This document shows positions 17,350 through 52,864 of a stretch of 64,000 nt of DNA, one piece after another. Each line of letters starts with the position of its first letter. Within the stretch, counting starts at the first letter, position 1. Below the pieces are notes generated by a model. That model was not told where the DNA came from. It did not search any database and was given only the letters and a program-made list of their open reading frames with translations. The translations under genes were made by a program, and so were the position numbers. The stretch is from contig JAFYLS010000079.1 in the NCBI GenBank assembly GCA_017550035.1, positions 1,925 to 65,924 on the forward strand, given 5' to 3'. Source of the DNA: Clostridia bacterium. Its GTDB lineage: Bacteria; Bacillota; Clostridia; Christensenellales; Aristaeellaceae.

Positions 17350-17366
17350 GAGTGTCTGTTTCCTCC

Positions 17367-28110: not shown

Positions 28111-28120
28111 AAAGCAAAAG

Positions 28121-28150
28121 ACCGACTTCTTGTACGGAGGCCGGTTTTTT
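28121..28150 (+). terminator. rho-independent terminator
   Basis: accgacttc-tgtac-ggaggccggt imperfect stem followed by T6. Confidence 0.55.
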
Positions 28151-28178
28151 ATATACCTGTGCGTTTGCCTTATGTATC

Positions 28179-28207
28179 TTGAACTTGCGCTGATGCCATG
28201 TTATAAT
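28179..28207 (+). promoter_or_regulatory. near-consensus promoter
   Basis: TTGAAC (28179-28184), 17 nt, TATAAT (28202-28207). Confidence 0.65.
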
Positions 28208-28266
28208 GCAATCAGCAATACAGAAACCGTAGCCTGCCTGTTTTTTGCAGGTCTTTGGAGGATTAT

Positions 28267-30132: not shown

Positions 30133-30235
30133 AACGGAATATGGGCGTGTCGGAGGAAAATGGAATAAAATCCGGCATATGTTGAACATAGAAGAATACC
30201 ATGAACCATTTTTACAGATTGCGAGGAATGCTGGT

Positions 30236-30973: not shown

Positions 30974-31002
30974 CATACCAAAGTTGTAAAGGAGCCGTTT
31001 TG

Positions 31003-31968: not shown

Positions 31969-31986
31969 AAGGAAGGAGAATATACG

Positions 31987-32643
31987 ATGGAACTGATGAA
32001 AAGATATCAGCAGGCTGTGGAGGAGTTGCTGGAAAAAGTGCGCAATACGCAGACGGAAAATATTGTGAAGGCCGGAAACTTGATTGCCAACAGCGTTGCA
32101 AACGGCGGAAAGATCATTCTGAGCGGCATTTGCCATTCCATTGAAAACGACTTGATTTACCGGGGCGGCGGCCCGATTTTCTACAAGCACTACGAGGAAA
32201 ACGTTCACCGCAATACGCTGAAAAAGGGCGATGTGCTGGTGGTCAGCTCGGTTTCCGGCAGAACCAAGCCGGTGGTTGATCTGGCGTGGGAAATGGTGGA
32301 AAAAGGTGTAAATGTGATCGCCTTTACCAGCATGGAATATGCGGTGCAGGTGGATGCTGTGCATGAGTCCGGAAAAAAGCTGTACGAGTTTGCCACGCTG
32401 ACGCTTGATAACTGTGCTCCGGCGGCAGAAGCTATGCTGGAAGTGGAGGGAATCGAGGCGAGGTTTGCTGCGGCATCCGGTATCGCGTCGGATTATATCA
32501 TGTGGAACGTGACCAGCGTTGCCGTAGAGAAACTGCTGGAAATGGGCATTACTCCCGGTATTCTCAAGAGTGCAAATTTCCCCGGAGGAAACGATTATAA
32601 TAAAACGGTTATTGAACCGAATTTCGAAAAGTACGGATATTGA
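31987..32643 (+). CDS. SIS domain protein (second paralog)
   Basis: GGKIILSGICHS and VLVVSSVSGRTKPVVDLA SIS motifs. Same C-terminal ...GGNDYNK... pattern as the first paralog. Confidence 0.75.
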   Translation: MELMKRYQQAVEELLEKVRNTQTENIVKAGNLIANSVANGGKIILSGICHSIENDLIYRGGGPIFYKHYEENVHRNTLKKGDVLVVSSVSGRTKPVVDLAWEMVEKGVNVIAFTSMEYAVQVDAVHESGKKLYEFATLTLDNCAPAAEAMLEVEGIEARFAAASGIASDYIMWNVTSVAVEKLLEMGITPGILKSANFPGGNDYNKTVIEPNFEKYGY

Positions 32644-32654
32644 TCTGCAAAAGA

Positions 32655-32681
32655 AAAGCGTCTTGAAAAGACGCTTTTTTC
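32655..32681 (+). terminator. rho-independent terminator
   Basis: agcgtct-tgaaa-agacgct followed by T6. Confidence 0.85.
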
Positions 32682-32708
32682 AGTGCGGCATTTATTTCTT
32701 TGTGCAAG

Positions 32709-32749
32709 AATATGCTTGTTATGCATAAATATGCTTATGTGTATGCAAA
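32709..32749 (+). repeat. abutting direct repeats AATATGCTTGTTATGCATAA / AATATGCTTATGTGTATGCAAA in the AT-rich region upstream of the 13-kb operon
   Basis: Read directly. Candidate operator. Confidence 0.5.
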
Positions 32750-33034
32750 GCATGCGCACTTAATTGATGAGAAAAAGGCTGAATAATCCGTGCGCGGCGA
32801 TGAAAAAACAAGAAAAATACAGAATAATTCCGTGTTTTTGTAAAAATTCATAAATATGAAATAAAATAGTGAACGGTAAGAGAAGGACTGCCGTTGACAC
32901 AAAAATGAAAATGGCGTATTCTATATTATAAGAAAAAATGTGGAAGTACGTTATTTTTAGAGCTGTCGAGAGTTATTTGCTCTTTATTTAGCGTATTCAG
33001 GTACCAATATTCAAATACAGAGGGGCGGGATATC

Positions 33035-35929
33035 ATGTTCCAAAAACTCCGTGGCACTCTGATTGGCCTTGCGTGTATTGTACTGGCCATTGTACTGATT
33101 GCAGTACTTGGCGACGGCGTGCAAACCTTCAAAGCCAAATACGAAGACTATGACCTGTCTACGGATGTGACCGGTTTGGGCCGCAGCAACACGTACGACG
33201 GTTATTTGCTTGCGCATAAGGATGTTCCTTCCGGGCAACAGGATGTGCAGGTGGATGTATCTGTATTTGAAGGAGACGGTGAAGCACGCCTTTCCGAAAA
33301 CGGTGAAAACTGCGTGTATACGCCCGACAGTTCCATGGTGACCTGGAAGGTCAATGTGGAAAAGGCCGGCATGTACAACGTTGTGCTGGACTATAAAACG
33401 GTGGAATCCCGTGGTGTGGATATGGAGCGTGCGCTCTACATCAACGGCGAGGTTCCTTTTGCCGGTGCGGCTGATCTGACCTTTAACCGCCTGTGGACGG
33501 ATGCAGGTCCCGTGCGTAAGGACAATCAGGGCAACGACGTGCGTCCCACTCAGACCGAAGTGTTTGACTGGCAGACCGCTTACTGCCAGGATTCCATGGG
33601 CTATGCCGCAAACCCCTATCAGTTTTATTTTGAGGCAGGGGAGAACACCCTGTCCCTGGAAGCTGTGAATGAACCCATGCTGATCCGCGGCATTACGTTA
33701 AAGCCCGTGGTTGGCGATATGACCTATGCAGAATATATGGCGCTGCAGCCTGAGGTCGAAATGACCGAGGAAGCCAAGCAGTGGCAGATGACCGTACAGG
33801 GTGAGGATGCTGTGGTGCGTTCTTCGCCGTCTTTGTATGCCCGTTATGACCGCTCTTCTCCCGATACGTATCCCAACAGTGTGACCAACACCGTGTTCAA
33901 TTACATCGGCGGCGATCCCTGGAATAAGGCCGGTCAGTGGATTGAATGGGAATTCGAAGTGCCGGAAGACGGTTATTATTCCGTGTCCGTAAAAGCCCGT
34001 CAGGCTTATCAGCGCGGCGCCGTATCCAGCCGCAGTTTGTATATTGACGGCGAAATTCCTTTTGAAGAAGTAAAGACCATTGCGTTTGATTATGATACGG
34101 CCTGGAATTTGCTGACTTTGAAGGACGAAAAGGGCGAACCTTACAAGTTCTATCTGGAAAAGGGTGCTCATACCATCCGCCTTCAGGCTACGCTGGGTGC
34201 GATGGGCGGTATTCTCAATCAGCTGGAAGACAGCATTTACCGCCTCAATCTGATCTACCGCCGCATTCTGGTATTGACGGGCGTGAACCCTGACCGTTTC
34301 CGCGACTACAATCTCGCCGGTCAGTTCCCCGAAGTACTGGAAGCTATGGACCTTGAAAGCAAGCGTCTTTACAAGCTGGTGGATGACACCGTTGCCATTA
34401 CCGGTCAGAAGAGCGACCGTGTAGCGGTAGCCCAGACGCTGGCTGTACAGCTTGAAAACTTTGTGGAATACAACGAACGTATTACGCAGCAGTTTGTAAA
34501 CTTCAAGGATAACATTACCAGTCTGGGTACGGCCATGCAGAACATGGCGGAAACCAAGCTGGATGTGGATGCCATCATCATCAGCGGTGAAAAGGCTGAA
34601 CTGCCGAAAGTCCGGGATGGCTTCCTCCGCAAGGCGGTGCACGAGATCAAATCCTGCGTGGCGTCCTACTTTGTGGACTACAACGCACTGGGAGATACCT
34701 ATGATGAAGATGAAGTCAAGGATGACCTGATCGAAGTATGGATCGTGACGGGCCGTGACCAGAGTACCGTGCTCAAGACCATGGTTGACGATACCTTTAC
34801 TCCTGCAACGGGCATTAAGGTAAACGTTAAGCTGGTTGTGGCTGATACGCTTTTGACCGCCGTTGTGGCCGGTAACGGCCCCGACGTGGTACTGTCTCTA
34901 GGTACCTGGTTCCCGGTCAACTATGCTATGCGTAACGCAGCGGAAGATCTGACTCAGTTTGAAGACTTCGAAGAAGTGATAAAACCCTTCTACGAAAGCG
35001 CTTTGACCGCCATGCGCTATGAAGGCGGTGTGTACGGCCTGCCCGAAACCCAGGAATTCTCCGTGCTGTTCTACCGCGAGGATATTCTGGAAGATCTGGG
35101 GCTGACTGCACCTTCTACCTGGGCTGATCTGATCGGCATGCTGCCTACCATTCAGGGTAACAACCTGTCCGTTGGTATTCCTTATCCGGATATCACCACG
35201 GTAGATATGTCCATCCTGAATTCCCTGATCTATCAGAACGGCGGCCGTATTTACGGTGAAGGCAACAAGAAGACCTTGATCGATAATGAAAACGGCGTAA
35301 CGGCCTTCAAACTGTATACCTCTTTGTATAATGACTACGGCCTTCCCACCGTGTTCGACTTTGTCAGCCGTTTCCGTTCCGGCGAAATGCCGCTGGGCCT
35401 GTTCCCCTACAGTACGTACAATACGCTGGTGGTATCTGCCCCCGAAATCCGCAACCTGTGGGATTTCGCCCTGTTCCCCGGCACTGTGCAATCGGATGGG
35501 ACCATCGACCGCAGCGTACATTCTCAGGGTCTGTGCTGCATGATGGTGGCAACGGATGACGAAAACGTCAAAAAGAATGCATGGGAATTCATGAAGTGGT
35601 GGACCAGCGCCGATTCTCAGGTGCGTTTCGGTCGAGAAATTGAAAGTATTCTGGGTTCTTCCGCCCGCTACGCTACCGCTAACTGCGATGCACTGGAACA
35701 GCTGGCCTGGAGCGCTCCGCAGCTGCGCGTGCTGAAAGAACAGCAGAGCTACACGGTAGGCTTCCCGGAAATCGCCGGCGGTTACTCGACCACTCGTCAT
35801 ATGACCAACGCCATTCGCCGCGTCATCAACACCAAGGAAGATGCCCGTGAAACGCTGATGACGTACGCACGAACCATTAATGATGAAATCCGGATCAAAC
35901 GTATGGAATTTGATCTGCCCATTGACTGA
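33035..35929 (+). CDS. membrane-anchored 964-aa fusion: N-terminal TM helix, two CBM-like beta-sandwich modules, C-terminal ABC solute-binding (family 1) domain
   Basis: The TM helix is LIGLACIVLAIVLIAVLG, with no lipobox. A duplicated module carries R.LYI(N/D)GE(V/I)PF and PY.FY.E.G...L. The C-terminal half (IEVWIVTGRDQSTVLKTMVDDTFTPATGIKVNVKLV...GNGPDVVL) is typical of SBP_bac_1. Confidence 0.75.
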   Translation: MFQKLRGTLIGLACIVLAIVLIAVLGDGVQTFKAKYEDYDLSTDVTGLGRSNTYDGYLLAHKDVPSGQQDVQVDVSVFEGDGEARLSENGENCVYTPDSSMVTWKVNVEKAGMYNVVLDYKTVESRGVDMERALYINGEVPFAGAADLTFNRLWTDAGPVRKDNQGNDVRPTQTEVFDWQTAYCQDSMGYAANPYQFYFEAGENTLSLEAVNEPMLIRGITLKPVVGDMTYAEYMALQPEVEMTEEAKQWQMTVQGEDAVVRSSPSLYARYDRSSPDTYPNSVTNTVFNYIGGDPWNKAGQWIEWEFEVPEDGYYSVSVKARQAYQRGAVSSRSLYIDGEIPFEEVKTIAFDYDTAWNLLTLKDEKGEPYKFYLEKGAHTIRLQATLGAMGGILNQLEDSIYRLNLIYRRILVLTGVNPDRFRDYNLAGQFPEVLEAMDLESKRLYKLVDDTVAITGQKSDRVAVAQTLAVQLENFVEYNERITQQFVNFKDNITSLGTAMQNMAETKLDVDAIIISGEKAELPKVRDGFLRKAVHEIKSCVASYFVDYNALGDTYDEDEVKDDLIEVWIVTGRDQSTVLKTMVDDTFTPATGIKVNVKLVVADTLLTAVVAGNGPDVVLSLGTWFPVNYAMRNAAEDLTQFEDFEEVIKPFYESALTAMRYEGGVYGLPETQEFSVLFYREDILEDLGLTAPSTWADLIGMLPTIQGNNLSVGIPYPDITTVDMSILNSLIYQNGGRIYGEGNKKTLIDNENGVTAFKLYTSLYNDYGLPTVFDFVSRFRSGEMPLGLFPYSTYNTLVVSAPEIRNLWDFALFPGTVQSDGTIDRSVHSQGLCCMMVATDDENVKKNAWEFMKWWTSADSQVRFGREIESILGSSARYATANCDALEQLAWSAPQLRVLKEQQSYTVGFPEIAGGYSTTRHMTNAIRRVINTKEDARETLMTYARTINDEIRIKRMEFDLPID

Positions 35930-35953
35930 GAAATGTGAAGGGAGTGAGACTGC

Positions 35954-36892
35954 ATGAAATCTTTGGCCGCAAACTACATAACGATGAAGCGTGAAAGGCT
36001 GCATTATGACTGGGAAAAAGCCAAGCGCATGAAGATGTGCTACCTGTTCCTGCTGCCGTATGCGCTCCTGTTCTTCACGTTCTTCATTCTGCCCATTGCT
36101 TCTTCCATCTACTTCAGCTTCACCAACTACAACATTCTGGAACCTCCGAAGTTCATTGGTCTGCAGAACTACATCAATCTGGTTCTGCAGGATGAAGTAT
36201 TCCTGACGGCTGTGAGAAACACGCTGGTCATCGCTGTCATCACGGGCCCTGTGGGCTATATTCTGTCTTTCCTGTTTGCGTGGTTCATCAATGAACTGCC
36301 CCGCTGGCTGCGTACGTTGGCTGTTGTGGTCTTCTACGCGCCCTCCATCGCGGGCAACGCTTTCTACATTTTCTCCATTATCTTCCGAGGAGATGTGTAC
36401 GGCTACCTGAACTCCATTCTGGTGGAGCTGGCGCTGATTGATGCACCCAAACTGTGGCTGCTGGATCCCAATCTGATGATGCCCGTTATCATCATCGTCA
36501 TTTTGTGGATGAGCATGGGCACCGGCTTCCTTTCCTTTGTTGCCGGCCTGCAGGGTGTGGACCGGAGCATGTATGAAGCCGGCTATGTGGACGGCATCCG
36601 CAACCGCTGGCAGGAACTGTACTACATCACGCTGCCCAGCATGAAGCCCATGCTGCTCTTCGGCGCCGTGATGAGCATCACTTCTGCATTCAACGTGTGC
36701 GATGTTCCCCGTGCGCTGGCCGGTTATCCCAGTACGGACTATGCGGCCCGCACCATCGTTACGCACTTGTTTGACTACGGTTTTTCCCGTTTCGAAATGG
36801 GCTATGCATCGGCCATTGCAACAGTTCTGTTCCTGCTGATGATCCTGTGCAATAAGGCCATTCAATCCATGCTGAGAAAGGTGGGCACTTAA
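35954..36892 (+). CDS. CUT1 ABC permease (MalF-type)
   Basis: 312 aa. The EAA loop is MYEAGYVDGIRNRWQELYYITLP. Confidence 0.88.
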   Translation: MKSLAANYITMKRERLHYDWEKAKRMKMCYLFLLPYALLFFTFFILPIASSIYFSFTNYNILEPPKFIGLQNYINLVLQDEVFLTAVRNTLVIAVITGPVGYILSFLFAWFINELPRWLRTLAVVVFYAPSIAGNAFYIFSIIFRGDVYGYLNSILVELALIDAPKLWLLDPNLMMPVIIIVILWMSMGTGFLSFVAGLQGVDRSMYEAGYVDGIRNRWQELYYITLPSMKPMLLFGAVMSITSAFNVCDVPRALAGYPSTDYAARTIVTHLFDYGFSRFEMGYASAIATVLFLLMILCNKAIQSMLRKVGT

Positions 36893-36894
36893 GT

Positions 36895-38073
36895 ATGAGT
36901 ATGAATCCAACTCCTTATAAGCCTGCCAAGAGAACCCGGGGCGACATTCTGCATGAGCAGATGGTGCTGCGCGGCGAAATCGTGGAAAATAAAGAACCGG
37001 TAAGCCATAAGAAGTTTATCATCATTTCTTCAATCATTATGGCGCTGCTCATTGCAGTAGTAGTGGTTTCCTTCGTGCGTGTGGATGCTGTGGAATCGGC
37101 AGCATTGCAGGGACTGGAACTGCCAAAGGATGCAGCCTATGCTTCCATTTACATGGTGGGCAAGGTGGCAGGTATTGTGATTGGCGCAGGCTATCTGTTC
37201 TTCGCGCTGATTCATGTGCTGGCCCCCAAACGCCGCAAGCCCAACCGCAGCTTCTGGGGCGATCTGGGCATTTACCTGATGCTGGCAATCGTAGCTGTTG
37301 CCATGGCATTTCCGCTGGTTTTCTCCATCGCTTCTTCTCTGAAGCCGCTGGATGAACTGTTCCGCTTCCCGCCCAAGGTGTTTCCGCAGCATGTTACGCT
37401 GGATAACTTCAGCGATTTGTTTGTAACCTTGAGCCAGAGCTATGTGCCCTTCTCCCGTTATCTGGTGAATACCGTATTTATCACCTTTGTGGGTACCTTT
37501 GGGCATCTGTTCATTGCTTCCATGGCGGCATTCGTGCTGGCAAAGTATGATTTCCCCGGCGGAAAAACCTTCTTTAGTATCGTTGTCACGGCTCTGATGT
37601 TCTCCGGTTATGTAACAGGCATTCCCAACTATGTCATCATGAGCAAACTGAAGATGATCGATACCTACTGGGCAGTCATTCTTCCTGCGTTCGCGGCCCC
37701 CATTGGTCTGTTCCTGATGAAGCAGTTTATGGAAGGTCTGCCGGATGCGCTGATTGAAGCGGCTCATCTGGACGGCGCCAGTGAAATGCGTATCTTCTGG
37801 AGCATTGTGATGCCGAATGTGAAGCCTGCGTGGCTGACCATTATCATCTTCTCCGTGCAGAGTCTGTGGAACACTAACGCTGCAACGGTCATTTATTCCG
37901 AAAGCAAAAAAACGCTGGTCTATGCGCTGCAGCAGATTCAGGCGGGCGGCGTCGCCCGTGCCGGTCAGGCTGCGGCGGTCACGGTCATCGTGATGCTGGT
38001 TCCCATTACCATTTTCGTTCTGTCTCAGAGCAACATTCTGGAGACTATGGCCAGTTCCGGTCTGAAGGATTGA
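36895..38073 (+). CDS. CUT1 ABC permease (MalG-type) with an N-terminal extension of about 115 aa
   Basis: The EAA loop is LIEAAHLDGASEMRIFWSIVMP. The extra N-terminal region contains two additional hydrophobic segments. Confidence 0.85.
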   Translation: MSMNPTPYKPAKRTRGDILHEQMVLRGEIVENKEPVSHKKFIIISSIIMALLIAVVVVSFVRVDAVESAALQGLELPKDAAYASIYMVGKVAGIVIGAGYLFFALIHVLAPKRRKPNRSFWGDLGIYLMLAIVAVAMAFPLVFSIASSLKPLDELFRFPPKVFPQHVTLDNFSDLFVTLSQSYVPFSRYLVNTVFITFVGTFGHLFIASMAAFVLAKYDFPGGKTFFSIVVTALMFSGYVTGIPNYVIMSKLKMIDTYWAVILPAFAAPIGLFLMKQFMEGLPDALIEAAHLDGASEMRIFWSIVMPNVKPAWLTIIIFSVQSLWNTNAATVIYSESKKTLVYALQQIQAGGVARAGQAAAVTVIVMLVPITIFVLSQSNILETMASSGLKD

Positions 38074-38117
38074 CGAAAGACAGGGTGGGACACATCAAGA
38101 AAGGTGGGAGGATGACC

Positions 38118-39629
38118 ATGAAAACAGCAATCAGGCTAACTGCATTGGTGCTTATACTTGCGCTGCTGCTGCCTGTGGGAATGGCTTTTGCCAGTACAGA
38201 CGGTCACAACAGCATATATACCTATAACTACGACTATTGGGATGACTACAAGGAAACGCCGGACGCATACCGTGTGGATCAGGTGCTTTACAGCTCCACT
38301 CTGGAACTGGAAACGCCCATGCGCCGTCCTCAGAGCCTGTATGTACGCGATGAGGAAATCTTTGTATGTGATACCGGTAACAACCGTATACTGCAGATCC
38401 ACCGTGATGGAGATGCATATACGCTGGTTCGTATCATTGACAAGATCGCGGGTGCAACGCCTGAAACCTTCAGCGCGCCCAGTGATGTGTTTGTGGATGA
38501 AGACGGTAACTTTTACATTGCCGATACCAACAATAACCGCGTGGTGAAAGCAGATAAAGACCTGAACTTTGTGCTGGCTTTCACGCAGCCTCAGGATGCT
38601 ACGTTTGATCAGAACCTGAGCTTCCTTCCGGATAAAATCGTGGTGGACGTGTCCGGGCGCGTGTATGTGCTGGCAACCAATGTGAACAAGGGTCTTGTGA
38701 AGTTCGAAAATGACGGTACTTTTACCGGCTTCATTGGTGCAAATCCCGTTGTGTATACCATGTGGGATTACATCTGGAAGAACTTTTTCACTACCAAAGC
38801 GCAGCGTGCGCAGCAGGCGTCCTTTGTTCCTACGGAATATGAAAACATCTGCATCGATAACGAAGGTTTCATATATGCCACTAACATCGTGTTCAGCGAA
38901 TATGACTTGATCTGGGATAATGCCAAGCCTATCCGCAAACTGAACAGCATTGGCAATGATATTCTGGTTAAGAATGACTGGTATCCGCCTATCGGCGATT
39001 TGCACTGGGTGGAACAGAGTCAGGAATACGGTCCTTCCAAGTTTGCCGATATTACCGTGTTTGACAATGACATCTATGTTGCCTTTGATAAAACCCGCGG
39101 CAGATTGTTTGGCTACGATCCGCAGGGCATCATGCTGTGGGCATTTGGCACCAAGGGCAACAGCGACGGCGCATTCCTTTCGGCCGCATCCATTGAAAGC
39201 ATGGGTTTTGATCTGTTTGCACTGGACGAAAACGAATGCTCTATCACCGTGTTTACCCCTACCGAATACGGCAGCCTGATCTATCTTGCCAGCGATCAGT
39301 ATCTCCGCGGTGAATATGATGAATCGGCTGATACCTGGCGGGAAGTGCTTCGTCTCAATGCCAACTACAATCTCGCCTTTATTGGCATTGGCCGCGCGCT
39401 GATGCGTCAGGAAAACTACAAAGAGGCGATGGACTATTTCAAAATGGCCTATGACCATGAGAACTACGGCCGTGCATACCGCTATTACCGCAAGGAACTG
39501 GTCGAGGAGAACATTGTGTGGGCAGTAGCTGCAATTGTGATTGTGCTGGTTGTTCCGCTGGTTGTGCTCCAGGTGAAGAAAATGAAGATGGAGGTGGAAG
39601 CGTATGAGCGTCAAAAAGTTATCAAGTAA
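38118..39629 (+). CDS. secreted NHL-repeat beta-propeller protein with a TPR-like segment and a C-terminal TM anchor
   Basis: The signal peptide is MKTAIRLTALVLILALLLPVGMAFAS. NHL-type repeats are VCDTGNNRILQI and IADTNNNRVVKAD. The TPR-like segment is NYKEAMDYFKMAYD. The C-terminal TM is VWAVAAIVIVLVVPLVVL. Confidence 0.7.
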   Translation: MKTAIRLTALVLILALLLPVGMAFASTDGHNSIYTYNYDYWDDYKETPDAYRVDQVLYSSTLELETPMRRPQSLYVRDEEIFVCDTGNNRILQIHRDGDAYTLVRIIDKIAGATPETFSAPSDVFVDEDGNFYIADTNNNRVVKADKDLNFVLAFTQPQDATFDQNLSFLPDKIVVDVSGRVYVLATNVNKGLVKFENDGTFTGFIGANPVVYTMWDYIWKNFFTTKAQRAQQASFVPTEYENICIDNEGFIYATNIVFSEYDLIWDNAKPIRKLNSIGNDILVKNDWYPPIGDLHWVEQSQEYGPSKFADITVFDNDIYVAFDKTRGRLFGYDPQGIMLWAFGTKGNSDGAFLSAASIESMGFDLFALDENECSITVFTPTEYGSLIYLASDQYLRGEYDESADTWREVLRLNANYNLAFIGIGRALMRQENYKEAMDYFKMAYDHENYGRAYRYYRKELVEENIVWAVAAIVIVLVVPLVVLQVKKMKMEVEAYERQKVIK

Positions 39630-40281
39630 AACCAAGACGCCCCATCCTGCGTGGCAGAGATACAAGGATTCAGTCAAATATGCCAAACATGTGATCTTCC
39701 ATCCCTTCGACGGTTTCTGGGACCTTTCCCGTGAGAACCGCGGTTCATTGGCGGCAGCCCATACTTTTCTGGCTCTGTTTTTGATGACCCGCGTACTTAA
39801 ACTGTTGTATACCAATTTCCAGTTCATCAATGCCCCGATTCAGTATATCAACATCTATGAGCAGTGTGCTTCGCTGCTGCTGCCGTTCCTGGTGCTGTGT
39901 CTTGCAAACTGGAGCCTTTCTACATTGTTTGACGGAAAGGGCCGCTTCCTAGATATATATATGGCCATGTGCTATGCACTGGTGCCTTATATCATCATTC
40001 AGCTGCCGCTGATTTTCATCAGCCACATGATTTCTTTTGACGAAGCGTCCTATTACACGGTGCTGATGAGTGCAAGCGTGGTCTGGTCCCTGTTCCTGGT
40101 CTTTGCCGGTCTGATGCAGGTGCATGATTATGGCCCCGGAAAAACTATCATCTTCGTGATTGCCACCGTGTTTGGTGCGCTGGTCATCTTGTTCCTGGTT
40201 CTGGTGTTCTTCAGCCTGCTGAGCGATGCGCTGGGATATTTCGTGTCTCTGTACCGCGAGATTGTTTTCAGGCTTCATTAA
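39604..40281 (+). CDS. Yip1-domain polytopic membrane protein
   Basis: 225 aa and 5 TM segments. The N-terminal HPFDGFWDL... is typical of bacterial YIP1-family proteins. Overlaps the upstream gene by 26 nt. Confidence 0.65.
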   Translation: MSVKKLSSKTKTPHPAWQRYKDSVKYAKHVIFHPFDGFWDLSRENRGSLAAAHTFLALFLMTRVLKLLYTNFQFINAPIQYINIYEQCASLLLPFLVLCLANWSLSTLFDGKGRFLDIYMAMCYALVPYIIIQLPLIFISHMISFDEASYYTVLMSASVVWSLFLVFAGLMQVHDYGPGKTIIFVIATVFGALVILFLVLVFFSLLSDALGYFVSLYREIVFRLH

Positions 40282-40296
40282 GGAGGGGAGAGTAAG

Positions 40297-42870
40297 ATGA
40301 GAAAGAAAAAATCCCTTTTTCGTAAACTGCTTCCCTGGATGATTTCTGCTGCATTGATTGCCGCGCTGGTGATTTTTGTGGGGATTCCGCTGTATGCGCC
40401 TCAGGAAACAGTGAACCTTGCAGAAGCGGAAGTCTTCTATTACGAGGGCGATAAGAAGGCTCTGACCCTGGAAAACGATAAACTGCTGTTTGAAATGGAT
40501 CCCACAACGACCTATTTCAAACTGACGGAAAAGGAATCCGGTCGTGTGTGGCTGTCCAACCCGGAAAATGCAGCCAAGGATAAAGTTGCTGTTTCCGCCA
40601 ATAAGGGCATGCTGCAAAGCACGCTGGCCATGACCTATTCTTCTTCCAATGGTGTAATTGAGTACAACAACTACCAGTATTCCATCGAGAATGGCAACTA
40701 CCGCATTGAGCAGCTGGAAGATGGGATTCGGGTAGAATACGCCATTGGTAAGATTGAGAAGATTTACATGCTGCCTCAGGCTATCACCGTGGAACGCATG
40801 AATCTGTTCGTGGACGCCATGAGCAGCAAAGATGCCAAGAAAGCCAAAACGGTGTATACCCTGATGAAGCCGGATAAGGTGCAGGAACGTGACGACAAGG
40901 ATGAACTGCTTGCGCTGTATCCGGAACTGGCAAATCAGGAACTGTACATTCTCAAGAGCGATACCAAGGAAAGCAACAAGGAAAAGATTGCCGAAAGCTT
41001 TATTGCAGCCGGTTATACACAGGAAGAGTATGATACCGATATGCAGCTGGTAGCGGGCGCTGCCAAAATAGAACAGGCGATCTTCAACGTGACGGTGGAC
41101 TATAAGCTGGATGGGGGAGATCTCATTGTAGAAGTTCCCTATCAGGAAATGCGCTATCCTGCAGATAACCCCATTACACATGTGACGGTGCTGCCTATGT
41201 TCAACGCAGCCGCAACGGACGAAGAAGGTTTCATGTTCGTACCTGAAGGCGGCGGCGCCATCATCCGTTACAACAATGGCAAACTGTCTCAGAACAGTTA
41301 TTTCGCCAATATGTATGGATGGGACTGGGGTTCTGAACGAACCGAAGTGGTGCATGAAACCAAGAACGTTTTCCCTGTTTTCGGCATGAGCCGTGCGGAT
41401 GGATCCTTTATCTGCATTGTGGAAGGCGCTCAGTCCTATGCAGGCGTGATGGCGGATATTTCCATGCGCTACAACAGTTATAACTGGGCATGCGTGAAAT
41501 ACAATGTCATTCACAGTGACCGTTATAATGTTTCTGCCAAAACGGAACGTCTGCTCTACATGTTTGAAAAGGAAATGCCGGATGTAACCATTGCACAGCG
41601 CTACCGCTTCCTGGACAGCAATGATTATGTAGGCATGGCCGCTGCGTATGGTGAATACCTTCGTGAAACGCATCCTGAACTTGTGCTGAATGGCGCTGCA
41701 GAAGAAGTTCCCGTTTCTGTGGAGCTGGTGGGCGCTATTGACAAGACGGTTGTCAAGTTCGGTCTTCCTGTGGATTCCGTGGTTCCTGTGACAACTTTTG
41801 AAGATGCGCAGGTTATTCTGGATGATCTCAAGGATCATGGTGTACGCAACCTGAATGTCCGATTCAGCGGATGGATGAACGGCGGCGTTAGCCAGAAGGT
41901 TCTGAGCAATGTGAAAGTGCAGCGTCAGTTGGGCGGCATGGCGGATATGAAAAAGCTGATTGCCTATGCCAAGGAAGAAAACATTCCACTGTACTTTGAT
42001 GGGATTAGCTGCTTTGCCTACCGCAGCGGTATTCTGCAGGGCTTCCTGCCTTACCGCGATGCAGCAAGACTGACTACCCGCGAACAGATTAAGCTCTATC
42101 CCTATTCTGCAGTAACCTTCATTCCTGCGGAATACATGGATGCGTATTATCTGGTGCAGCCGGGTTACGCGCATGAAAAAGCTGCAAATCTTCTTGAGGC
42201 ACTGGATGAAACGGACGCCTATGGCGTTGCATTCCGCGATATCGGCAGTGTTCTCAGCGCGGATTACAACCCCAAAAAGACTGTGACCCGCGAAGAAGTG
42301 AAAGCGATGAATCTGGAAACCGTTGCGAAGGCCCATGAAAACGGCCAGAAGGTGATGGTGAAGGAAGGTTTCGATTTCGTACTGCCTTATGCGGATCTGA
42401 TTACGGACATGGATCTGGATGGAACCAACTACTCTATCCTGGATGAAACCGTGCCCTTCTATCAGATTGCCATGCACGGCATGGTGGATTACACGGGCGC
42501 TGCCATCAACCTGGCTCCTGACTGGCTGGAAGAAGTGCTGCGCTGTGCCGAATACGGCGCCGGTCTCAACTTCACGTTCATGCAGGAAGATGGCAAGATC
42601 GTTCAGGAAACCGATTATTCCGGACTTTTCGGTGCGGAATATGAAGGCTGGAAGGAAAAGGCACTGGATATTATCCGGAAATATCAGGATGATATGCAGG
42701 GTCTGAATCAACTGAGAATTGTTGGCCATGAACAGCCGGCACACCGTGTTACCGTGACCGAATACGAAAACGGCACCCGGGTGTATGTGAACTACAGCAA
42801 TGCGGACTATACGGAAGGTGAAATCACCGTTCCTGCCCGCAGCTACATCGTCGCAGGGAGGGATCAGTAA
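40297..42870 (+). CDS. 857-aa N-terminally TM-anchored extracellular protein, DUF5696-like (putative novel glycan-active enzyme)
   Basis: The TM helix is LLPWMISAALIAALVIFVGIPL. No CAZy catalytic motif was recognised by eye. The DUF5696 assignment is from memory of the gene neighbourhood (Yip1 + DUF5696 next to ABC permeases in Firmicutes). Confidence 0.5.
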   Translation: MRKKKSLFRKLLPWMISAALIAALVIFVGIPLYAPQETVNLAEAEVFYYEGDKKALTLENDKLLFEMDPTTTYFKLTEKESGRVWLSNPENAAKDKVAVSANKGMLQSTLAMTYSSSNGVIEYNNYQYSIENGNYRIEQLEDGIRVEYAIGKIEKIYMLPQAITVERMNLFVDAMSSKDAKKAKTVYTLMKPDKVQERDDKDELLALYPELANQELYILKSDTKESNKEKIAESFIAAGYTQEEYDTDMQLVAGAAKIEQAIFNVTVDYKLDGGDLIVEVPYQEMRYPADNPITHVTVLPMFNAAATDEEGFMFVPEGGGAIIRYNNGKLSQNSYFANMYGWDWGSERTEVVHETKNVFPVFGMSRADGSFICIVEGAQSYAGVMADISMRYNSYNWACVKYNVIHSDRYNVSAKTERLLYMFEKEMPDVTIAQRYRFLDSNDYVGMAAAYGEYLRETHPELVLNGAAEEVPVSVELVGAIDKTVVKFGLPVDSVVPVTTFEDAQVILDDLKDHGVRNLNVRFSGWMNGGVSQKVLSNVKVQRQLGGMADMKKLIAYAKEENIPLYFDGISCFAYRSGILQGFLPYRDAARLTTREQIKLYPYSAVTFIPAEYMDAYYLVQPGYAHEKAANLLEALDETDAYGVAFRDIGSVLSADYNPKKTVTREEVKAMNLETVAKAHENGQKVMVKEGFDFVLPYADLITDMDLDGTNYSILDETVPFYQIAMHGMVDYTGAAINLAPDWLEEVLRCAEYGAGLNFTFMQEDGKIVQETDYSGLFGAEYEGWKEKALDIIRKYQDDMQGLNQLRIVGHEQPAHRVTVTEYENGTRVYVNYSNADYTEGEITVPARSYIVAGRDQ

Positions 42871-43856
42871 TGGCAAAACAGAAAAGCTTGAATCCCCGCC
42901 GTGAACGCTGGGGGCTGAAGGAATCTGTGCTGACCTTCATTCCCGGCAACGCGACCTACCGTACCATGCGCGCGCGCAATGCGCGTCAGGGCGTACTGTT
43001 CATCCTGCCGCTCATCATCGGTTTCCTGGTCTTTATGGCCAAGCCGCTGGTGGAATCGCTGCTGATGAGTATGAGCAACGTGCAGATCAAGATGGGTGAG
43101 GGGTATACCCGCACCTTTACCGGTATTCTGAATTATGAATACGCGCTGACGGTAGATCCCTACTTTAACCAGCGTCTGGTGGAAGAAATCGGACGAATGG
43201 GTTTGAATGCCATTGCCACGCTGGTTATGTCCTTCGTGGTTGCTGTAATCCTCAATCAGGAATTTAAGGGCCGCGCCCTGGCACGCGCCATCTTCTTCCT
43301 GCCCGTGATTCTTTCTTCCGGCGTTCTGCCCGGCATAGAATCCCAGAATGAGTTCTATAATATGATGCAGGGTATCTCCGACGAGATCGCCAATCAGTCC
43401 GGTGTGAACCTGTCTGCGTCCCTGCAGCAACTGCTTCAGGTATCCGGTATGGGCAGCGGTGTGTTTGATATCCTGTTTGACATGATCGATTCTATTTACG
43501 ATATCGTCATGGCCAGCGGTATTCAAATCATCGTGTTCCTCAGCGGTCTGCAGAGCATTTCTCCTTCCCTGTATGAAGCGGCGGATATCGAAGGCTGCAC
43601 CGCTTGGGAATCCTTCTGGAAAATCACGTTCCCCATCGTCAGCCCGCTGCTCTTGGTCAACTGCATATACACCATTATCGACTTCTTTATGAAGAACGAT
43701 AACAAGGTGATGGAACGAATCAATGAAGTGATGTACAGCCAGTTCCGCTTTGGCGAAAGTGCCGCCATGAGCTGGATTTACTTTGGTGTTGCTCTGGCGT
43801 TCATCGGCATTGGCTCCTTCATCATTACCAGGGGGGTGCAATATTATGAAGACTAA
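42870..43856 (+). CDS. CUT1 ABC permease (MalF-type), second importer
   Basis: The EAA loop is LYEAADIEGCTAWESFWKITFP. The ATG overlaps the upstream TAA (TAATG). Confidence 0.88.
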   Translation: MAKQKSLNPRRERWGLKESVLTFIPGNATYRTMRARNARQGVLFILPLIIGFLVFMAKPLVESLLMSMSNVQIKMGEGYTRTFTGILNYEYALTVDPYFNQRLVEEIGRMGLNAIATLVMSFVVAVILNQEFKGRALARAIFFLPVILSSGVLPGIESQNEFYNMMQGISDEIANQSGVNLSASLQQLLQVSGMGSGVFDILFDMIDSIYDIVMASGIQIIVFLSGLQSISPSLYEAADIEGCTAWESFWKITFPIVSPLLLVNCIYTIIDFFMKNDNKVMERINEVMYSQFRFGESAAMSWIYFGVALAFIGIGSFIITRGVQYYED

Positions 43857-44853
43857 TACTGCACACACTGTGAAGCACAGAGATTTCTGGGAGGCCAACC
43901 GCCAGTCGGGCGGTTACCTGCTGAAAGCCAGAATAGGGAAGGCGGCTGTGTCCATCGGCCGTGCGCTGCTGTTGTTTGGTTTGTGCTTCATGATCATTCA
44001 GCCTATGCTGACCCGTTTCGGAACCAGTCTGATGGCGGAAAACGACCTGTACGATTCTACGATCGTGCTGGTTCCCCGCAATCCTACGCTGGATAACTAC
44101 CGAATCGTAGGTATCTTGACCGGTATGCCCAAGTCCATGCTGAACACCCTGTGGACGTCGCTGATGGTATCCGTGCTGCAGGTGTGTTCCTGCACATTGG
44201 TGGCGTATGGTTTTGCCCGCTTCAACTTCCCGTTGAAGAAAATGTGGTTTGCCTGCGTGATCGCATTGATCATCATCCCGCCGCAGACCATTGCCACTTC
44301 GCTGTACATGTTCTTTGCCAACTTTGATATACTGGGTATATTCAAAGCGCTGACCGGTAAAAAACTGGCACTGCACGGCTCCATCTGGCCTTACGCCATG
44401 ATGAGCTTGACCTGCATGGGTCTCAAGAACGGTCTGTATATCTTCATGCTGCGTCAGTACTTCATGGGTATTCCCAAGTCGCTGGAAGAAGCTGCCTACG
44501 TGGACGGCTGCAGCACCATGCATACCTTCGTGAAGATCATGCTGCCGGACGCTGTGCCCACCATTACCAGCTGCTTCCTGTTCTCCTTTGTGTGGCAGTG
44601 GACCGACCTGTTCTACAGCCGTAACTTCCTCAGCGGTTACGGCGTGTATTCCGTGCAGCTGTCCTCCATCGTTTCCCGAATGAACCGTTTCTTCTCTGCA
44701 GATGCCAATACGCCCGTTATTACGCCTGTCGGACGTCAGCAACAGCTGATTTCCATCGGCGTACTGATTTGCTGTATTCCGCTGATCATTCTGTATCTGT
44801 TTGCACAGAAGACCTTTGTAAAGAGCATCGTCATGTCCGGTTCCAAAGAATAA
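43846..44853 (+). CDS. CUT1 ABC permease (MalG-type), second importer
   Basis: The EAA loop is LEEAAYVDGCSTMHTFVKIMLP. ATG 43846 overlaps the upstream gene by 11 nt. Confidence 0.85.
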   Translation: MKTNTAHTVKHRDFWEANRQSGGYLLKARIGKAAVSIGRALLLFGLCFMIIQPMLTRFGTSLMAENDLYDSTIVLVPRNPTLDNYRIVGILTGMPKSMLNTLWTSLMVSVLQVCSCTLVAYGFARFNFPLKKMWFACVIALIIIPPQTIATSLYMFFANFDILGIFKALTGKKLALHGSIWPYAMMSLTCMGLKNGLYIFMLRQYFMGIPKSLEEAAYVDGCSTMHTFVKIMLPDAVPTITSCFLFSFVWQWTDLFYSRNFLSGYGVYSVQLSSIVSRMNRFFSADANTPVITPVGRQQQLISIGVLICCIPLIILYLFAQKTFVKSIVMSGSKE

Positions 44854-44866
44854 TTGGAATTTGTAC

Positions 44867-44895
44867 TTGCATCTTTATTCAGGGTGTGGTATAAT
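44867..44895 (+). promoter_or_regulatory. internal extended -10 promoter for the second SBP gene
   Basis: TTGCAT (44867-44872), 17 nt, TGgTATAAT (44887-44895). Confidence 0.6.
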
Positions 44896-44994
44896 CTGGG
44901 TAACGTCAATTGTATCCCATCGAATCTGTATGTGCTTCCCGCTCGTTCCTATGGGGAAGTGCATGTGGAAATATATTTTCAGGAGGAACCCGTA

Positions 44995-46356
44995 ATGAAG
45001 AAAATGGTTGCTCTGCTGCTGGCCCTCATGATGGTTGTGGCCTGCATGCCCGCTCTGGCTGAATGGCCTGAAGGCTATCCCGAAGTCGTTGAAGGTATCG
45101 ACTTTGGCGGTCAGACCATCTACATCTATGACTACTGGACCGCTGATGACACCCGCAAGGATGATCCCAGCGAAGAAGAACAGGCCCAGTACGACTACCG
45201 TGACTGGATCATGGAAACCTACAACTGCGAAATCCGTCAGATCCAGAAGGGCGACTGGACTACCAACGTTCAGGAACTGACCAATTTCTGCACCAGCCCC
45301 GATGGCACCCTGTGCCTGTACATCCTGCCTCCGGACTTCGTCGGCACCCCCATGGGTAACGACCTGTTCGCTGCCTGGGAATCCGAAAACATCGATTTCG
45401 AAGATGACAAGTGGAACGACTCCACCATCAACTTCATGACCAAGGGCGGCAAGGTGTACGGTGTTGCTACCGGCAACTCCGAACCCCGTCAGTGCCTGTT
45501 CTTCAACAAGCGCGTGCTGGAAGAAGCCGGTATCGATTGGGAAACCATCTATGACATGCAGGCTGATGGCACTTGGACCTGGGAAGCTTTCGAAGAAATG
45601 CTGATCCAGATCACCAAGGATACCGATAACGACGGCGTTATCGACATCTACGGTATGACCGGTAACAACTCCGATATGTTCATGATGGGCGTTGTGTCCA
45701 ACGGCGGCGAATTCTTCCGCTTCAATGACGAAGGCAAGCTGGAAATCGCTGTGAACAGTGACGCTGCTCTCGAAGGCCTGGCCTGGACCAAGGACGTGTT
45801 CGCAAAGTACTTCTATCAGCAGCCCGCTGACGGCTCCTGGGACTACTTCAAGGCTGCCTGGCTGCAGGGCTTCTGCGGCTTCTACATGTATCAGACCTAC
45901 GGCGGCTTCAACGACAACAGCGAACTCGCTCCCATGGAAGACGAATGGGGCTGCGTTGCATTCCCCAAGGGCCCCAAGGGCGACAAGTATGTGTCCATCG
46001 TGTCTGACAACGTGACCGTTATCCCCAACGTTTACGAAGCTGACGTGGCTGCTGACCTGGCTTACATCTATGACCTGTGGTCCAACGCCACTCCCGGTTA
46101 TGACGATGAATTCGCTTGGATTGGCAACAAGTACAACTTCACCGATGACCGCGCTGTGGACGAGACCTACGCCATGCTGCGTGAACCCGAACACTGCGTT
46201 GCCAACGCCGCTCTGTATATCGGTTCTGTGAACGACGTGCTGGGCAGCCCCCTGCTGTGGCAGCTGGCTGGCGGCACCCCCGCTGAACTGGTTGAAGCTG
46301 CTACCCCCGCCTGGCAGGCTCTGTGCGATGCCTTCAACGGTGTGGCTGCTGAATAA
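44995..46356 (+). CDS. extracellular sugar-binding lipoprotein (ABC SBP family 1)
   Basis: The signal peptide with lipobox is MMVVAC. AGGAGG lies upstream of ATG 44995. Very strong preference for C/T-ending optimal codons by eye. Confidence 0.85.
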   Translation: MKKMVALLLALMMVVACMPALAEWPEGYPEVVEGIDFGGQTIYIYDYWTADDTRKDDPSEEEQAQYDYRDWIMETYNCEIRQIQKGDWTTNVQELTNFCTSPDGTLCLYILPPDFVGTPMGNDLFAAWESENIDFEDDKWNDSTINFMTKGGKVYGVATGNSEPRQCLFFNKRVLEEAGIDWETIYDMQADGTWTWEAFEEMLIQITKDTDNDGVIDIYGMTGNNSDMFMMGVVSNGGEFFRFNDEGKLEIAVNSDAALEGLAWTKDVFAKYFYQQPADGSWDYFKAAWLQGFCGFYMYQTYGGFNDNSELAPMEDEWGCVAFPKGPKGDKYVSIVSDNVTVIPNVYEADVAADLAYIYDLWSNATPGYDDEFAWIGNKYNFTDDRAVDETYAMLREPEHCVANAALYIGSVNDVLGSPLLWQLAGGTPAELVEAATPAWQALCDAFNGVAAE

Positions 46357-46371
46357 TCTCGCTTAAATTGC

Positions 46372-46404
46372 GGACCGCTGCACGAAAGTGCAGCGGTCCT
46401 TTTA
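46372..46404 (+). terminator. rho-independent terminator
   Basis: ggaccgctgcac-gaaa-gtgcagcggtcc is a 12-bp perfect stem with a GNRA loop, followed by TTTT. Confidence 0.9.
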
Positions 46405-46463
46405 TGTCCTTCTTGTAGATACTCATAAAACGGGATATGACAGCCTTTATCGCTGTTATAAGG

Positions 46464-46497
46464 AACCGGCAGCACCACGATGGTACTGCCGGTTTTG
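46464..46497 (+). terminator. second plus-strand hairpin with a T-run, 60 nt after the first
   Basis: aaccggcag (46464-46472) pairs with ctgccggtt (46486-46494), followed by a T-run. Confidence 0.45.
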
Positions 46498-46520
46498 AAA
46501 TAGCGGAAGAAAAAACGTAT

Positions 46521-47252
46521 TCAAAAAATGGGCGTAAGTGATATGTGACTTTGAATACTGTATATGCAGTGGGCTAAAGATTGATCAATATAGTTAAAAT
46601 ACTCATCCTTTGAAATAAGCATACCGGAAAATGGCATATCACTTGATGGAGCAGGGACTTTCACCATCACCTTCAGCTTGCGCGATATGGCACCCGGTGG
46701 GAGAAAAGGTACATAATCAGGAAAGGAATCAATAAAAGGCAATAATGTGAGAAAAGGTGAATCGGGATATTTCTCCAGCAGCTCTTTCTCAAACAGATCC
46801 ATATCGTTTTTTCTGCACTGAAAAGGGATGATCTGCTTGGCATTTTTCCATGAAGGACTGATGTGATCAATTTCTTTGCGAAGAACCGGATCGGTAGACA
46901 TTCGAGACCACATGGCATGTGTGCGCTGCGGGTCATCGCAGATAAGGTGCTGAAAAGCGGCATCGACAATCAAATGTGCATAATAACCCCACCAGAACGA
47001 AGCTTCCTCCTTGGATAGAATGGTGCGCTGAGAAAGAAAATGGTCCAGAAACCATTGGCAATCGGAAAGAGACTTACGCTTACGCTGCATAAAATGAGTT
47101 ACTTCTCTGGGCGGAATAAATGCAGTCCAATCATCGTTTTCCAGATTGCAGTCCGGTGCAACAGAGCCAACGCAGAACTCCTTCGTGCAAAGATAGGGAA
47201 GCTCTTCAAGAATGCGCTGGGCTATGAACTGGTGTGTAATCCAGTTGGCCAT
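46521..47252 (-). CDS. hypothetical protein (weak resemblance to the zinc-dependent phospholipase C-like metal-binding N-terminus)
   Basis: 243 aa. MANWITHQFIA... has a W-x-T-H start, and HLIVDAAF is also present. Family not established. Confidence 0.5.
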   Translation of the reverse strand: MANWITHQFIAQRILEELPYLCTKEFCVGSVAPDCNLENDDWTAFIPPREVTHFMQRKRKSLSDCQWFLDHFLSQRTILSKEEASFWWGYYAHLIVDAAFQHLICDDPQRTHAMWSRMSTDPVLRKEIDHISPSWKNAKQIIPFQCRKNDMDLFEKELLEKYPDSPFLTLLPFIDSFPDYVPFLPPGAISRKLKVMVKVPAPSSDMPFSGMLISKDEYFNYIDQSLAHCIYSIQSHISLTPIF

Positions 47253-47269
47253 GATACTTCTCCTTTGCT

Positions 47270-47297
47270 AAAAACCCCCGGCAGGAGTGCCGGGGGA
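47270..47297 (-). terminator. terminator of the GH10 gene
   Basis: cccccggca-ggag-tgccggggg, with a T-run on the minus strand. Confidence 0.8.
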
Positions 47298-47309
47298 AAT
47301 TGTTACCGA

Positions 47310-48515: not shown

Positions 48516-48677
48516 ATAAATACCTCTTTCTATATGAATTTTCTTCGAAAATATTTTACCATATCCATAAGGGAAATACCATAACTTTTCGTGTGGATCA
48601 TAAATAATGATTGACAAAATATTTGAATTATGGCAACATGAAATAAAAGAAACTGCATAATTTCGGAGGGGTCTGAC

Positions 48678-52860: not shown

Positions 52861-52864
52861 CCTT

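Follow-up and report, generated by a model that had tools for sequence, protein, structure and literature searches.

Polysaccharide-utilization loci of Gram-positive bacteria (gpPULs) are an established concept, with examples in Roseburia, Eubacterium, Butyrivibrio, and Ruminococcus; by a working definition, such a locus unites a degrading enzyme, a transporter, and a regulator. Glycan foraging by Gram-positive bacteria in gut, rumen, and soil is far less mapped than the Sus-like systems of the Bacteroidota, partly for want of a hallmark gene set. Single components with a bearing on this study have also been described: in YknWXYZ of Bacillus, a Yip1-family protein is the partner of an ATP-binding cassette (ABC) transporter (PMC4887032), and DagB, an enzyme of glycoside hydrolase (GH) family 129, consists of an N-terminal beta-sandwich, a TIM barrel, and a C-terminal beta-sandwich (PMC5698469). 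The subject of this study is a block of nine genes (g1 to g9) in a 64-kb stretch of DNA from a Clostridia bacterium (assembly GCA_017550035.1, contig JAFYLS010000079.1), which is referred to as the window; all coordinates are positions within it, on the + strand unless stated. We consider the chance somewhat better than even that the block encodes a self-contained system at the surface of this Gram-positive bacterium (Clostridia), one that captures, trims, and imports glycans, the target probably being a complex, plant-derived heteroglycan. A preliminary description had proposed, in hedged terms, a glycan-processing locus of ten genes, and this reading is supported once it is corrected to nine genes and to a remote GH129-like relationship of one product.

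Gene order, boundaries, and conservation

According to the list of open reading frames (ORFs) and our own count, nine genes of one orientation occupy positions 33035–46356 (+), and the same nine were called independently on two ENA metagenomic contigs with identical genes. The intergenic distances from g1 to g9 are, in order, 24, 2, 44, −26, 15, −1, −11, and 141 nt, the start/stop overlaps being those of g4/g5 (26 nt), g6/g7 (1 nt), and g7/g8 (11 nt). Apart from the gene count, the preliminary description was exact here, namely in the coordinates, the strand, the spacing of at most 44 nt up to position 44853, and the three overlaps. All nine genes start with ATG and have a GGAGG-like Shine-Dalgarno (SD) sequence upstream. 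Pfam and NCBIfam searches bore out the domain order as well, with two solute-binding proteins (SBPs), four permeases, an NHL/TPR protein, a Yip1 protein, and a DUF5696 protein. The same domain scans detected neither an ABC ATPase nor a regulator encoded within the block, as had been noted before.

On the left, a terminator-like hairpin at 32653–32680 (+), which has a stem of 12 bp and a U run behind it (dG −20.3 kcal/mol, z −4.3, 0/200 shuffles as good), would end the upstream SIS/BadF operon and mark the boundary of the unit. The region 5′ of g1 comprises 390 nt, and the best sigma-70-like promoter candidate is found at 32894–32922 (+; TTGACA-17-TATTCT, 10/12 consensus), by consensus match only. 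An intrinsic terminator at 46372–46399 (+; 12-bp stem with nine GC pairs, T run; dG −27 kcal/mol, z −6.4) closes the unit. Taken together, spacing, SD sites, and terminators suggest that the nine genes are co-transcribed. A possible internal promoter for g9 was read by eye in the 141-nt gap between g8 and g9 (44867–44895, +; TTGCAT-17-TGgTATAAT, with an extended −10); its −35 element matches at 3/6 positions only, and the promoter scan missed it. Located 3′ of this candidate in the same gap, a hairpin with a 16-bp stem and a 13-nt loop (44925–44970, +) could tune the expression ratio of SBP to permease, and the gap as a whole folds no better than its shuffles (z −0.99).

Three further ideas were discarded. 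No Rfam match was obtained at E ≤ 0.1 in 32000–47500, including the leader of g1, and a riboswitch or leader RNA was dropped from consideration. Recent horizontal transfer of the block was rejected, as its GC content of 0.49–0.53 is that of the surroundings. Opposite almost all genes of the block lie very long antisense ORFs, specifically on the − strand at 34898–36910, 38136–39830, 39949–42876 (975 aa), 42864–43898, 43825–44742, and 44875–46194. They were rejected as genes; they are long because the codons TTA, CTA, and TCA are nearly absent from the sense genes (9/4,378 codons).

The nine-gene arrangement, hereafter the cassette, was compared with 25 distinct related loci from 14 GTDB genomes, two cultured bacteria, and nine further metagenomic places, to which the two ENA contigs carrying the window's own genes are additional. 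As far as each contig extends, gene order is kept in 25/25 related loci, down to a DUF5696 identity of 27%. The GTDB genomes, recovered with g6, are metagenome-assembled genomes (MAGs) of uncultured Clostridia, Oscillospiraceae, or 'Faecalibacterium', with DUF5696 identities of 40–62%. The same order is found in two cultured bacteria, on plasmid pNP243 of Butyrivibrio fibrisolvens D1 (DUF5696 protein WP_073386913, identity 28%) and on a plasmid of Paenibacillus cellulosilyticus KACC 14175, a member of the class Bacilli (WP_110042929, 27%). Seven of the nine further metagenomic loci were picked from distant 50%-identity cluster representatives (27–36%). Co-conservation across Clostridia and Paenibacillus had been predicted, and none of the sampled DUF5696 genes was found outside the cassette context.

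Within the 14 GTDB loci, identity is highest for g1 to g3 (60–87%) and lowest for g6 (40–62%) and g9 (34–60%); the fast divergence of the latter versus the slow divergence of the former fits a picture of specificity modules on a conserved platform. Homologues of g9 are usually present in related cassettes, sometimes moved upstream of g1, and among the GTDB loci that have space for the gene, only L001 lacked a match to g9 at E ≤ 1e-10. The GH2, GH143-like, SIS, and BadF genes 5′ of the block in the window are not kept in the 14 GTDB loci. In locus L021 (GCA_052835465.1), an AP_endonuc_2 gene, encoding a xylose-isomerase-like TIM barrel, stands at 14569–15330 between permease pair 2 and the second SBP gene.

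Because the genes are conserved in the same order across related loci, the arrangement is not a product of chance. Two ordinary, independent sugar ABC operons with three unrelated hypothetical genes, all uncoupled, would have been conceivable from the window alone, in that each half by itself resembles a standard CUT1 system of an SBP and two permeases and a promoter possibly precedes g9. An identical order in all related loci, spanning two classes of Bacillota, effectively excludes such a chance neighborhood, which we regard as highly improbable; the start/stop overlaps, the fusion of the NHL and Yip1 proteins in related loci, and the cassette context of every sampled DUF5696 gene likewise argue against it.

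Binding, transport, and membrane components

The product of g1 (33035–35929, +; 964 aa) comprises an N-terminal transmembrane (TM) segment (residues 7–25), two beta-sandwiches with the fold of carbohydrate-binding modules (CBMs) of families 6 and 35, a helical bundle, and a solute-binding domain of the CUT1 type. Pfam assigned SBP_bac_1 to residues 580–862, and CBM_35 and Golvesin_C remained below threshold. The solute-binding domain is closest to Lin1841 (E 3.6e-16). Residues ~60–225 are homologous to residues ~250–390 (BLASTP E 1e-11), and an AlphaFold2 model of residues 29–562, built with 21 homologues, shows two beta-sandwiches followed by the helical bundle (mean predicted local distance difference test score, pLDDT, 84.5; predicted template modeling score, pTM, 0.81). 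As isolated modules, the sandwiches matched CBM35 (2vzp, 2w1w) and CBM6 (2cdp, 5fui) structures in Foldseek with a probability of 1.0 and TM-scores of 0.6–0.73 on the target. At the family level, Pfam CBM_35 scored 21.5–23.7 bits versus a cut-off of 28, and the predicted modules are an assignment to the CBM6/35 fold, not to a family. In the database, this N-terminal region occurs solely in fusion with an SBP domain, matches lacking this domain being mostly shorter sequences on short contigs. Full-length identity of g1 in Paenibacillus and Butyrivibrio amounts to 30–41%. The capture function proposed in the preliminary description is in line with these tandem modules.

Two complete permease pairs are encoded. 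The first consists of g2 (35954–36892, +; 312 aa), a MalF/UgpA-like permease with a BPD_transp_1 domain that is UgpA/GlcT-like according to NCBIfam, and g3 (36895–38073, +; 392 aa), a MalG/UgpE-like permease with BPD_transp_1 at residues 209–382 (UgpE-like, E 5.9e-29). In addition, g3 carries an N-terminal extension of ~110 aa with extra TM segments at 41–59 and 85–109, as judged by hydropathy. The second pair is formed by g7 (42870–43856, +; 328 aa), MalF/UgpA-like and a weak paralogue of g2 (E 1e-11), and g8 (43846–44853, +; 335 aa), MalG-like (E 6.9e-18) and a paralogue of g3 (E 2.5e-15), both with BPD_transp_1. An EAA-type loop is present in 4/4 permeases (YEAGYVDG...LP in g2, IEAAHLDG in g3, YEAADIEG in g7, and EEAAYVDG in g8), and both channels should therefore be ATPase-driven. 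The second SBP, g9 (44995–46356, +; 453 aa), is of the lipoprotein type with the lipobox VVAC and has a distant match to the arabino-oligosaccharide-binding protein AbnE (E 3.5e-9). Pfam found SBP_bac_1 and SBP_bac_8 on g1 and SBP_bac_1 on g9, and the nearest solved relatives of the two solute-binding parts, Lin1841, MalE, and AbnE, are sugar binders. The two uptake routes suggested earlier are thus represented by two permease pairs with EAA loops and two SBPs.

An ATPase of the MalK/MsmX type was not found in the block. Among the window ORFs scanned, the only ABC ATPases belong to a polyamine-type system, and the sole MalK-like ORF (ABC_tran and TOBE domains; 57358–58416) is part of this polyamine-type operon; a probable iron-siderophore ATPase lies outside the scan. 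A single MsmX/MsmK ATPase serving several loci is usual in Bacillota. In Paenibacillus, a MalK-type ATPase gene is located directly upstream of the cassette.

Between the two permease pairs, g4 (38118–39629, +; 503 aa) encodes a signal peptide, an NHL beta-propeller, a TPR region, and a C-terminal TM segment at 468–486, with Pfam matches to NHL and TPR; its matches in the Protein Data Bank (PDB) are Pizza propellers derived from the PknD sensor and TPR proteins. The gene overlaps by 26 nt with g5 (39604–40281, +; 225 aa), which encodes a Yip1-family polytopic membrane protein with several TM segments (Pfam Yip1, E 1.5e-15). In four related loci, NHL and Yip1 form a single fused protein, and in the alignment with Paenibacillus the C-terminal TM segment of g4 runs straight into the Yip1 membrane domain. 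Hydropathy also confirmed the membrane anchoring noted in the preliminary description, i.e., the N-terminal TM segments of g1 and g6 and the signal peptide and C-terminal TM segment of g4.

The DUF5696 protein and the proposed function

The protein encoded by g6 (40297–42870, +; 857 aa) consists of a single N-terminal TM segment and a DUF5696 ectodomain at residues ~35–857 and is a putative alpha-glycosidase with a three-domain fold similar to GH129 and GH101. It covers positions 2–612 of the 612 of Pfam DUF5696 (PF18952; E 1.5e-191, 638.5 bits versus a cut-off of 25.6), which is the sole family reported at E ≤ 10. A search with the single sequence gave a weak N-terminal match to ZgGH129/DagB and nothing more. 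In the literature searched, no paper mentions DUF5696, PF18952, IPR043751, or this gene combination. The family comprises 4,767 clusters at 50% identity (E ≤ 1e-3). Two giant proteins among the cluster representatives, P0243 (2,431 aa) and P0246 (1,622 aa), may be fusions or mis-calls; no Pfam domain beyond DUF5696 was found in either, and they were rejected as informative fusions.

Remote kinship emerged from the predicted structure and from the family profile. The AlphaFold2 model of g6 (pLDDT 69, pTM 0.69) matched DagB (5opq) in Foldseek with E 3.6e-25, the GH129 enzyme NagBb (5wzn) with ~1e-19, and GH101 with ~1e-12, followed in order by GH36, GH31, GH97, and GH13. Its secondary structure and the Foldseek superpositions (TM-scores 0.56–0.64 on the target) correspond to the GH129-type three-domain arrangement. 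Additionally, a profile of 121 diverse DUF5696 members matched nothing in the whole PDB other than DagB (E 1.9e-12) and NagBb (E 5.7e-8). The matched parts are collinear and fall into three segments, covering the N-terminal domain, barrel strands 1–3, and the C-terminal domain; over barrel strands 4–6 the alignment is below significance. Identity between g6 and GH129 enzymes is 12–15%. DUF5696 therefore looks like a remote relative of the GH129/GH101 alpha-glycosidases, as far as profile and model can tell. The structure prediction and Foldseek search that the preliminary description had recommended returned GH129/GH101-like folds for g6 and CBM35/CBM6-like folds for g1. Its remark that no CAZy signature could be recognized needs amendment with respect to the remote GH129-like similarity in fold and profile. 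A known CAZy family with a known substrate, which it had named as a finding that would speak against its proposal, was not encountered, DUF5696 being a separate Pfam family at the low identity given above. The processing step, which it had likewise put forward with caution, would agree with the modeled GH129/GH101 fold and with the profile homology, the latter to the GH129 type only.

Among 138 DUF5696 members with pairwise identities of 27–61%, eight polar residues are 93–100% conserved (D343, D656, D716, E752, R665, N738, H811, and N832). All eight are present in g6 and may constitute a conserved active site. D648, at the end of modeled strand 4, is the best equivalent of DagB D486 and NagBb D435 and is Asp in 60/138 members (43%); D656, eight residues further, is 96% conserved. 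No equivalent of the second carboxylate (NagBb E478, DagB E517) was found in the weak hidden Markov model (HMM) alignment, in which DagB E517-H518 is aligned to K689-E690 and column 690 is Gly in 77/138 and Glu in 6/138 members. Instead of the E517 equivalent, D343, D716, and E752 are the conserved carboxylates. The mapping of GH129 catalytic residues by sequence was dropped, as strands 4–6 are aligned below significance and D648 and K689/E690 are not conserved in the family. Hence, g6 is not demonstrably a GH129 member: its modeled fold agrees, and the catalytic residues are not demonstrably equivalent.

These residues also bear on the question of whether g6 is an enzyme at all. The system could serve uptake only, DUF5696 being a catalytically dead, GH-fold glycan binder or scaffold (a pseudo-glycosidase) and the oligosaccharides being released by other secreted enzymes. 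The uncertain mapping of the catalytic residues, with the D648 column at 43% Asp and the E517 column unconserved, would suit a dead enzyme, and genuine glycosidases are nearly always encoded beside the cassette; g1, moreover, already supplies binding modules. Against this, a set of eight polar residues, four of them acidic, that is 93–100% conserved at such low overall identity is what one would commonly see in an active site and not in a scaffold, and divergence of catalytic residues has a precedent, since the catalytic set of DagB differs from that of NagBb in the same fold (PMC5698469). We judge an uptake-only system unlikely, and by analogy with its structural relatives g6 would be a hydrolase. 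If DUF5696 is active, it would be the founder of a further family of glycoside hydrolases within the clan of GH129 and GH101.

In the favored reading of a system for capture, trimming, and import, the two CBM6/35-like modules of g1, placed on a helical stalk, would keep a heteroglycan or a large oligosaccharide bound to the cell surface, from which the g6 ectodomain would cleave or remove an alpha-linked sugar, by analogy with its structural clan. Both g9 and the SBP domain of g1 would receive the products, which would enter through g2/g3 and g7/g8; an MsmX/MalK-type ATPase that is encoded elsewhere and shared would energize these importers. The NHL-Yip1 pair g4/g5 might serve as a membrane platform or a second binding site that keeps the enzyme and the transporters together.

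Genomic surroundings and comparison with known systems

Directly downstream of the block, 46521–49901 encodes a Zn-dependent phospholipase-C-like protein (−), a GH10 (−), and a divergent GH5 (+) that is closest to GH5_4-type beta-1,3-1,4-glucanases/endoglucanases; the GH10 domain covers ~47325–48428, and translation probably begins inside the 641-aa ORF. A GH10/GH5 pair is likewise found 3′ of the cassette in a Christensenellaceae locus (L019), which additionally contains a GH120; in both loci the GH5 is most similar to GH5_4-type endoglucanases/lichenases. In Butyrivibrio, a GH43 gene nearest to exo-beta-1,3-galactanases overlaps the start of g1, and a histidine kinase and a response regulator (HK/RR) are encoded upstream. 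The flanks of 11 MAG loci contain member ORFs of GH27 (4), AraC (4), GH10 (3), GH43 (2), and GH2 (at least 1). The remaining metagenomic flanks include an AraC-type regulator (L022), GH95 (L023), GH29 (L024), GH95 and LacI (L025), LacI (L026), a sulfatase, a pectate-lyase-like gene, and HK/RR (L027), and two GH98 genes, L-arabinose isomerase (AraA), AraC, and a histidine kinase (L028). The flanks vary by locus, although genes for glycan use and for sugar regulators prevail in them, and the combination of a constant core with variable accessory enzymes resembles a PUL. The cassette would accordingly form the constant core which variable flanking glycosidases and regulators adapt to different glycans. 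A substrate call from the neighbors was dropped, the flanks being too varied; complex heteroxylan, arabinogalactan, and xyloglucan-type glycans are possible substrates.

A different role has to be weighed here, namely that the cassette serves to remodel, recycle, or sense surface or extracellular polysaccharide of the cell itself, the PknD-like NHL/TPR protein being the sensor. It would explain the envelope and housekeeping genes (MurB, WhiA, RapZ) that flank three loci, the closeness of the NHL propeller to the PknD sensor-domain lineage, the lack of a dedicated regulator in the window block, and a gene order that is unusually rigid for a catabolic locus. The permeases, however, are type-I importer TM domains with MalF/MalG/UgpAE affinities. 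The CBM6/35-fold modules, the MalK ATPase in cis, and the translationally coupled GH43 point to exogenous carbohydrate, and AraC, LacI, or HK/RR regulators and plant-glycan GHs are frequent in the flanks. Such a non-nutrient function is, in our view, quite improbable.

Several observations weigh against the reading as a glycan-foraging system. The window block contains neither a regulator nor an ATPase in cis, and co-transcription and physical assembly are inferred. The g6 model falls below a pLDDT of 50 in loops 316–357, 380–428, 571–620, and 649–664, where an active site would lie; the D648 column is 43% Asp, and the position next to DagB E517 is not conserved. Furthermore, three loci are flanked by the housekeeping genes mentioned above, and no substrate can be named because the flanking enzymes differ between loci.

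A bolder version of the proposed function is possible, although we hold it to be doubtful as a whole. The nine proteins would join into a single machine embedded in the membrane and functionally equivalent, in Gram-positive bacteria, to the SusCD 'utilisome', in which the CBM-bearing SBP and the NHL-Yip1 platform hold the hydrolase over two ABC translocons; DUF5696 would found a new GH family whose catalytic set, around D343, D656, D716, and E752, is unlike that of GH129 and GH101, and the cassette would be the hallmark set of a large, so far unrecognized class of glycan loci in Bacillota. If the components act together, one class of Gram-positive PULs could be recognized in genomes by this simple marker, and the cassette would be a first example of a CBM/SBP fusion and a Yip1-tethered propeller working with ABC importers.

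Other gene clusters were observed in and around the loci. Upstream of the block, 25960–32643 (+) is a separate operon. It encodes a GH2, a BT_1020-like (GH143-type) beta-propeller that also bears a sialidase-like CBM, a BadF-type sugar kinase, and a pair of SIS-domain paralogues (E 6.5e-35 between the two), and it looks like a module for the release and catabolism of keto-deoxy or amino sugars. In Paenibacillus cellulosilyticus (L018, 15787–25010), the genes 3′ of the cassette encode four LLM-class flavin-dependent oxidoreductases, one NADPH-dependent oxidoreductase, and two more SBPs; such a set is unusual company for a sugar locus. A second sugar-utilization cluster in the window (11499–18680, mostly −) comprises a GH38-like alpha-mannosidase (11499–14180), two BPD_transp_1 permeases, an SBP (15103–16410), and an amidohydrolase-like gene. 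At 51301–54424 (−), a sulfatase (51301–52752) adjoins an NAGPA-type phosphodiester glycosidase with peptidoglycan-binding domains (52865–54424). A type I restriction-modification system is encoded at 1314–8656 (+), with HsdM at 1314–2810, HsdS at 2807–3931, and HsdR, which has an N-terminal DUF4145, at 5333–8656; an AbiH abortive-infection gene (4137–5348) sits between HsdS and HsdR.

With regard to the working definition of a Gram-positive PUL, a carbohydrate transporter is encoded in the block. The only enzyme candidate within it is the GH-fold DUF5696 protein, and GH10/GH5 just downstream and GH2 upstream belong to separate transcription units. Domain scans detected no transcriptional regulator between 25960 and 51251 of the window, and thus none in the window locus, whereas AraC, LacI, or HK/RR regulators are adjacent to the cassette in many related loci. 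The cassette resembles gpPULs in its predicted surface glycan-binding and glycan-degrading proteins and CUT1 importers, in gpPULs often with the ATPase encoded elsewhere, and in these adjacent regulators of many cassette-bearing genomes. It differs from them in a fixed nine-gene core of identical order across classes, with two permease pairs, in CBMs that are placed on the SBP and not on an enzyme, in the NHL-Yip1 membrane module, in a sole enzyme candidate that comes from an uncharacterized family, and in the lack of a regulator in the window block.

Similarly, the Sus-like systems of the Bacteroidota (SusCD 'utilisomes') combine a binding and transport core, surface glycan binders, and an enzyme amid variable CAZymes and regulators. 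The components are unrelated, however: the cassette has no TonB-dependent transporter, SusD, or outer membrane, and no SusC/SusD domains were found in the block or its flanks. McsB/ClpC genes and the lipoprotein signals fit a Gram-positive organism.

Among single enzymes, the GH129 members NagBb, an alpha-N-acetylgalactosaminidase (5wzn), and ZgGH129/DagB, a 3,6-anhydro-D-galactosidase (5opq, 8rzk), share with g6 the succession of beta-sandwich, (beta/alpha)8 barrel, and beta-sandwich. In contrast, g6 has a helical insertion of ~100 residues in the N-terminal domain (~165–250) and an N-terminal membrane anchor, and DUF5696 is a separate Pfam family whose catalytic residues are not demonstrably equivalent. 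The GH101 enzymes EngBF and SpGH101, together with the bifidobacterial ABC importer for galacto-N-biose/lacto-N-biose (GNB/LNB), offer a parallel, in that an enzyme from this structural clan is anchored at the surface and feeds an ABC importer. GH101 proteins are much larger, are LPXTG-/cell-wall-anchored, and are not encoded amid permease genes; they act on mucin core 1, to which nothing in the flanks of the cassette points. YknWXYZ also has a Yip1-domain membrane protein encoded with an ABC transporter, but YknYZ is a MacB-type exporter directed against a peptide toxin, whereas the cassette encodes binding-protein-dependent importers and a Yip1 protein tethered to an NHL propeller. The cassette, which is widespread and rigidly organized across Clostridia and Bacilli, is set apart from gpPULs and the Sus systems by five features: its rigid core of nine genes, its two pairs of permeases, the fusion of CBMs to an SBP, the NHL-Yip1 module, and the enzyme candidate from an uncharacterized family.

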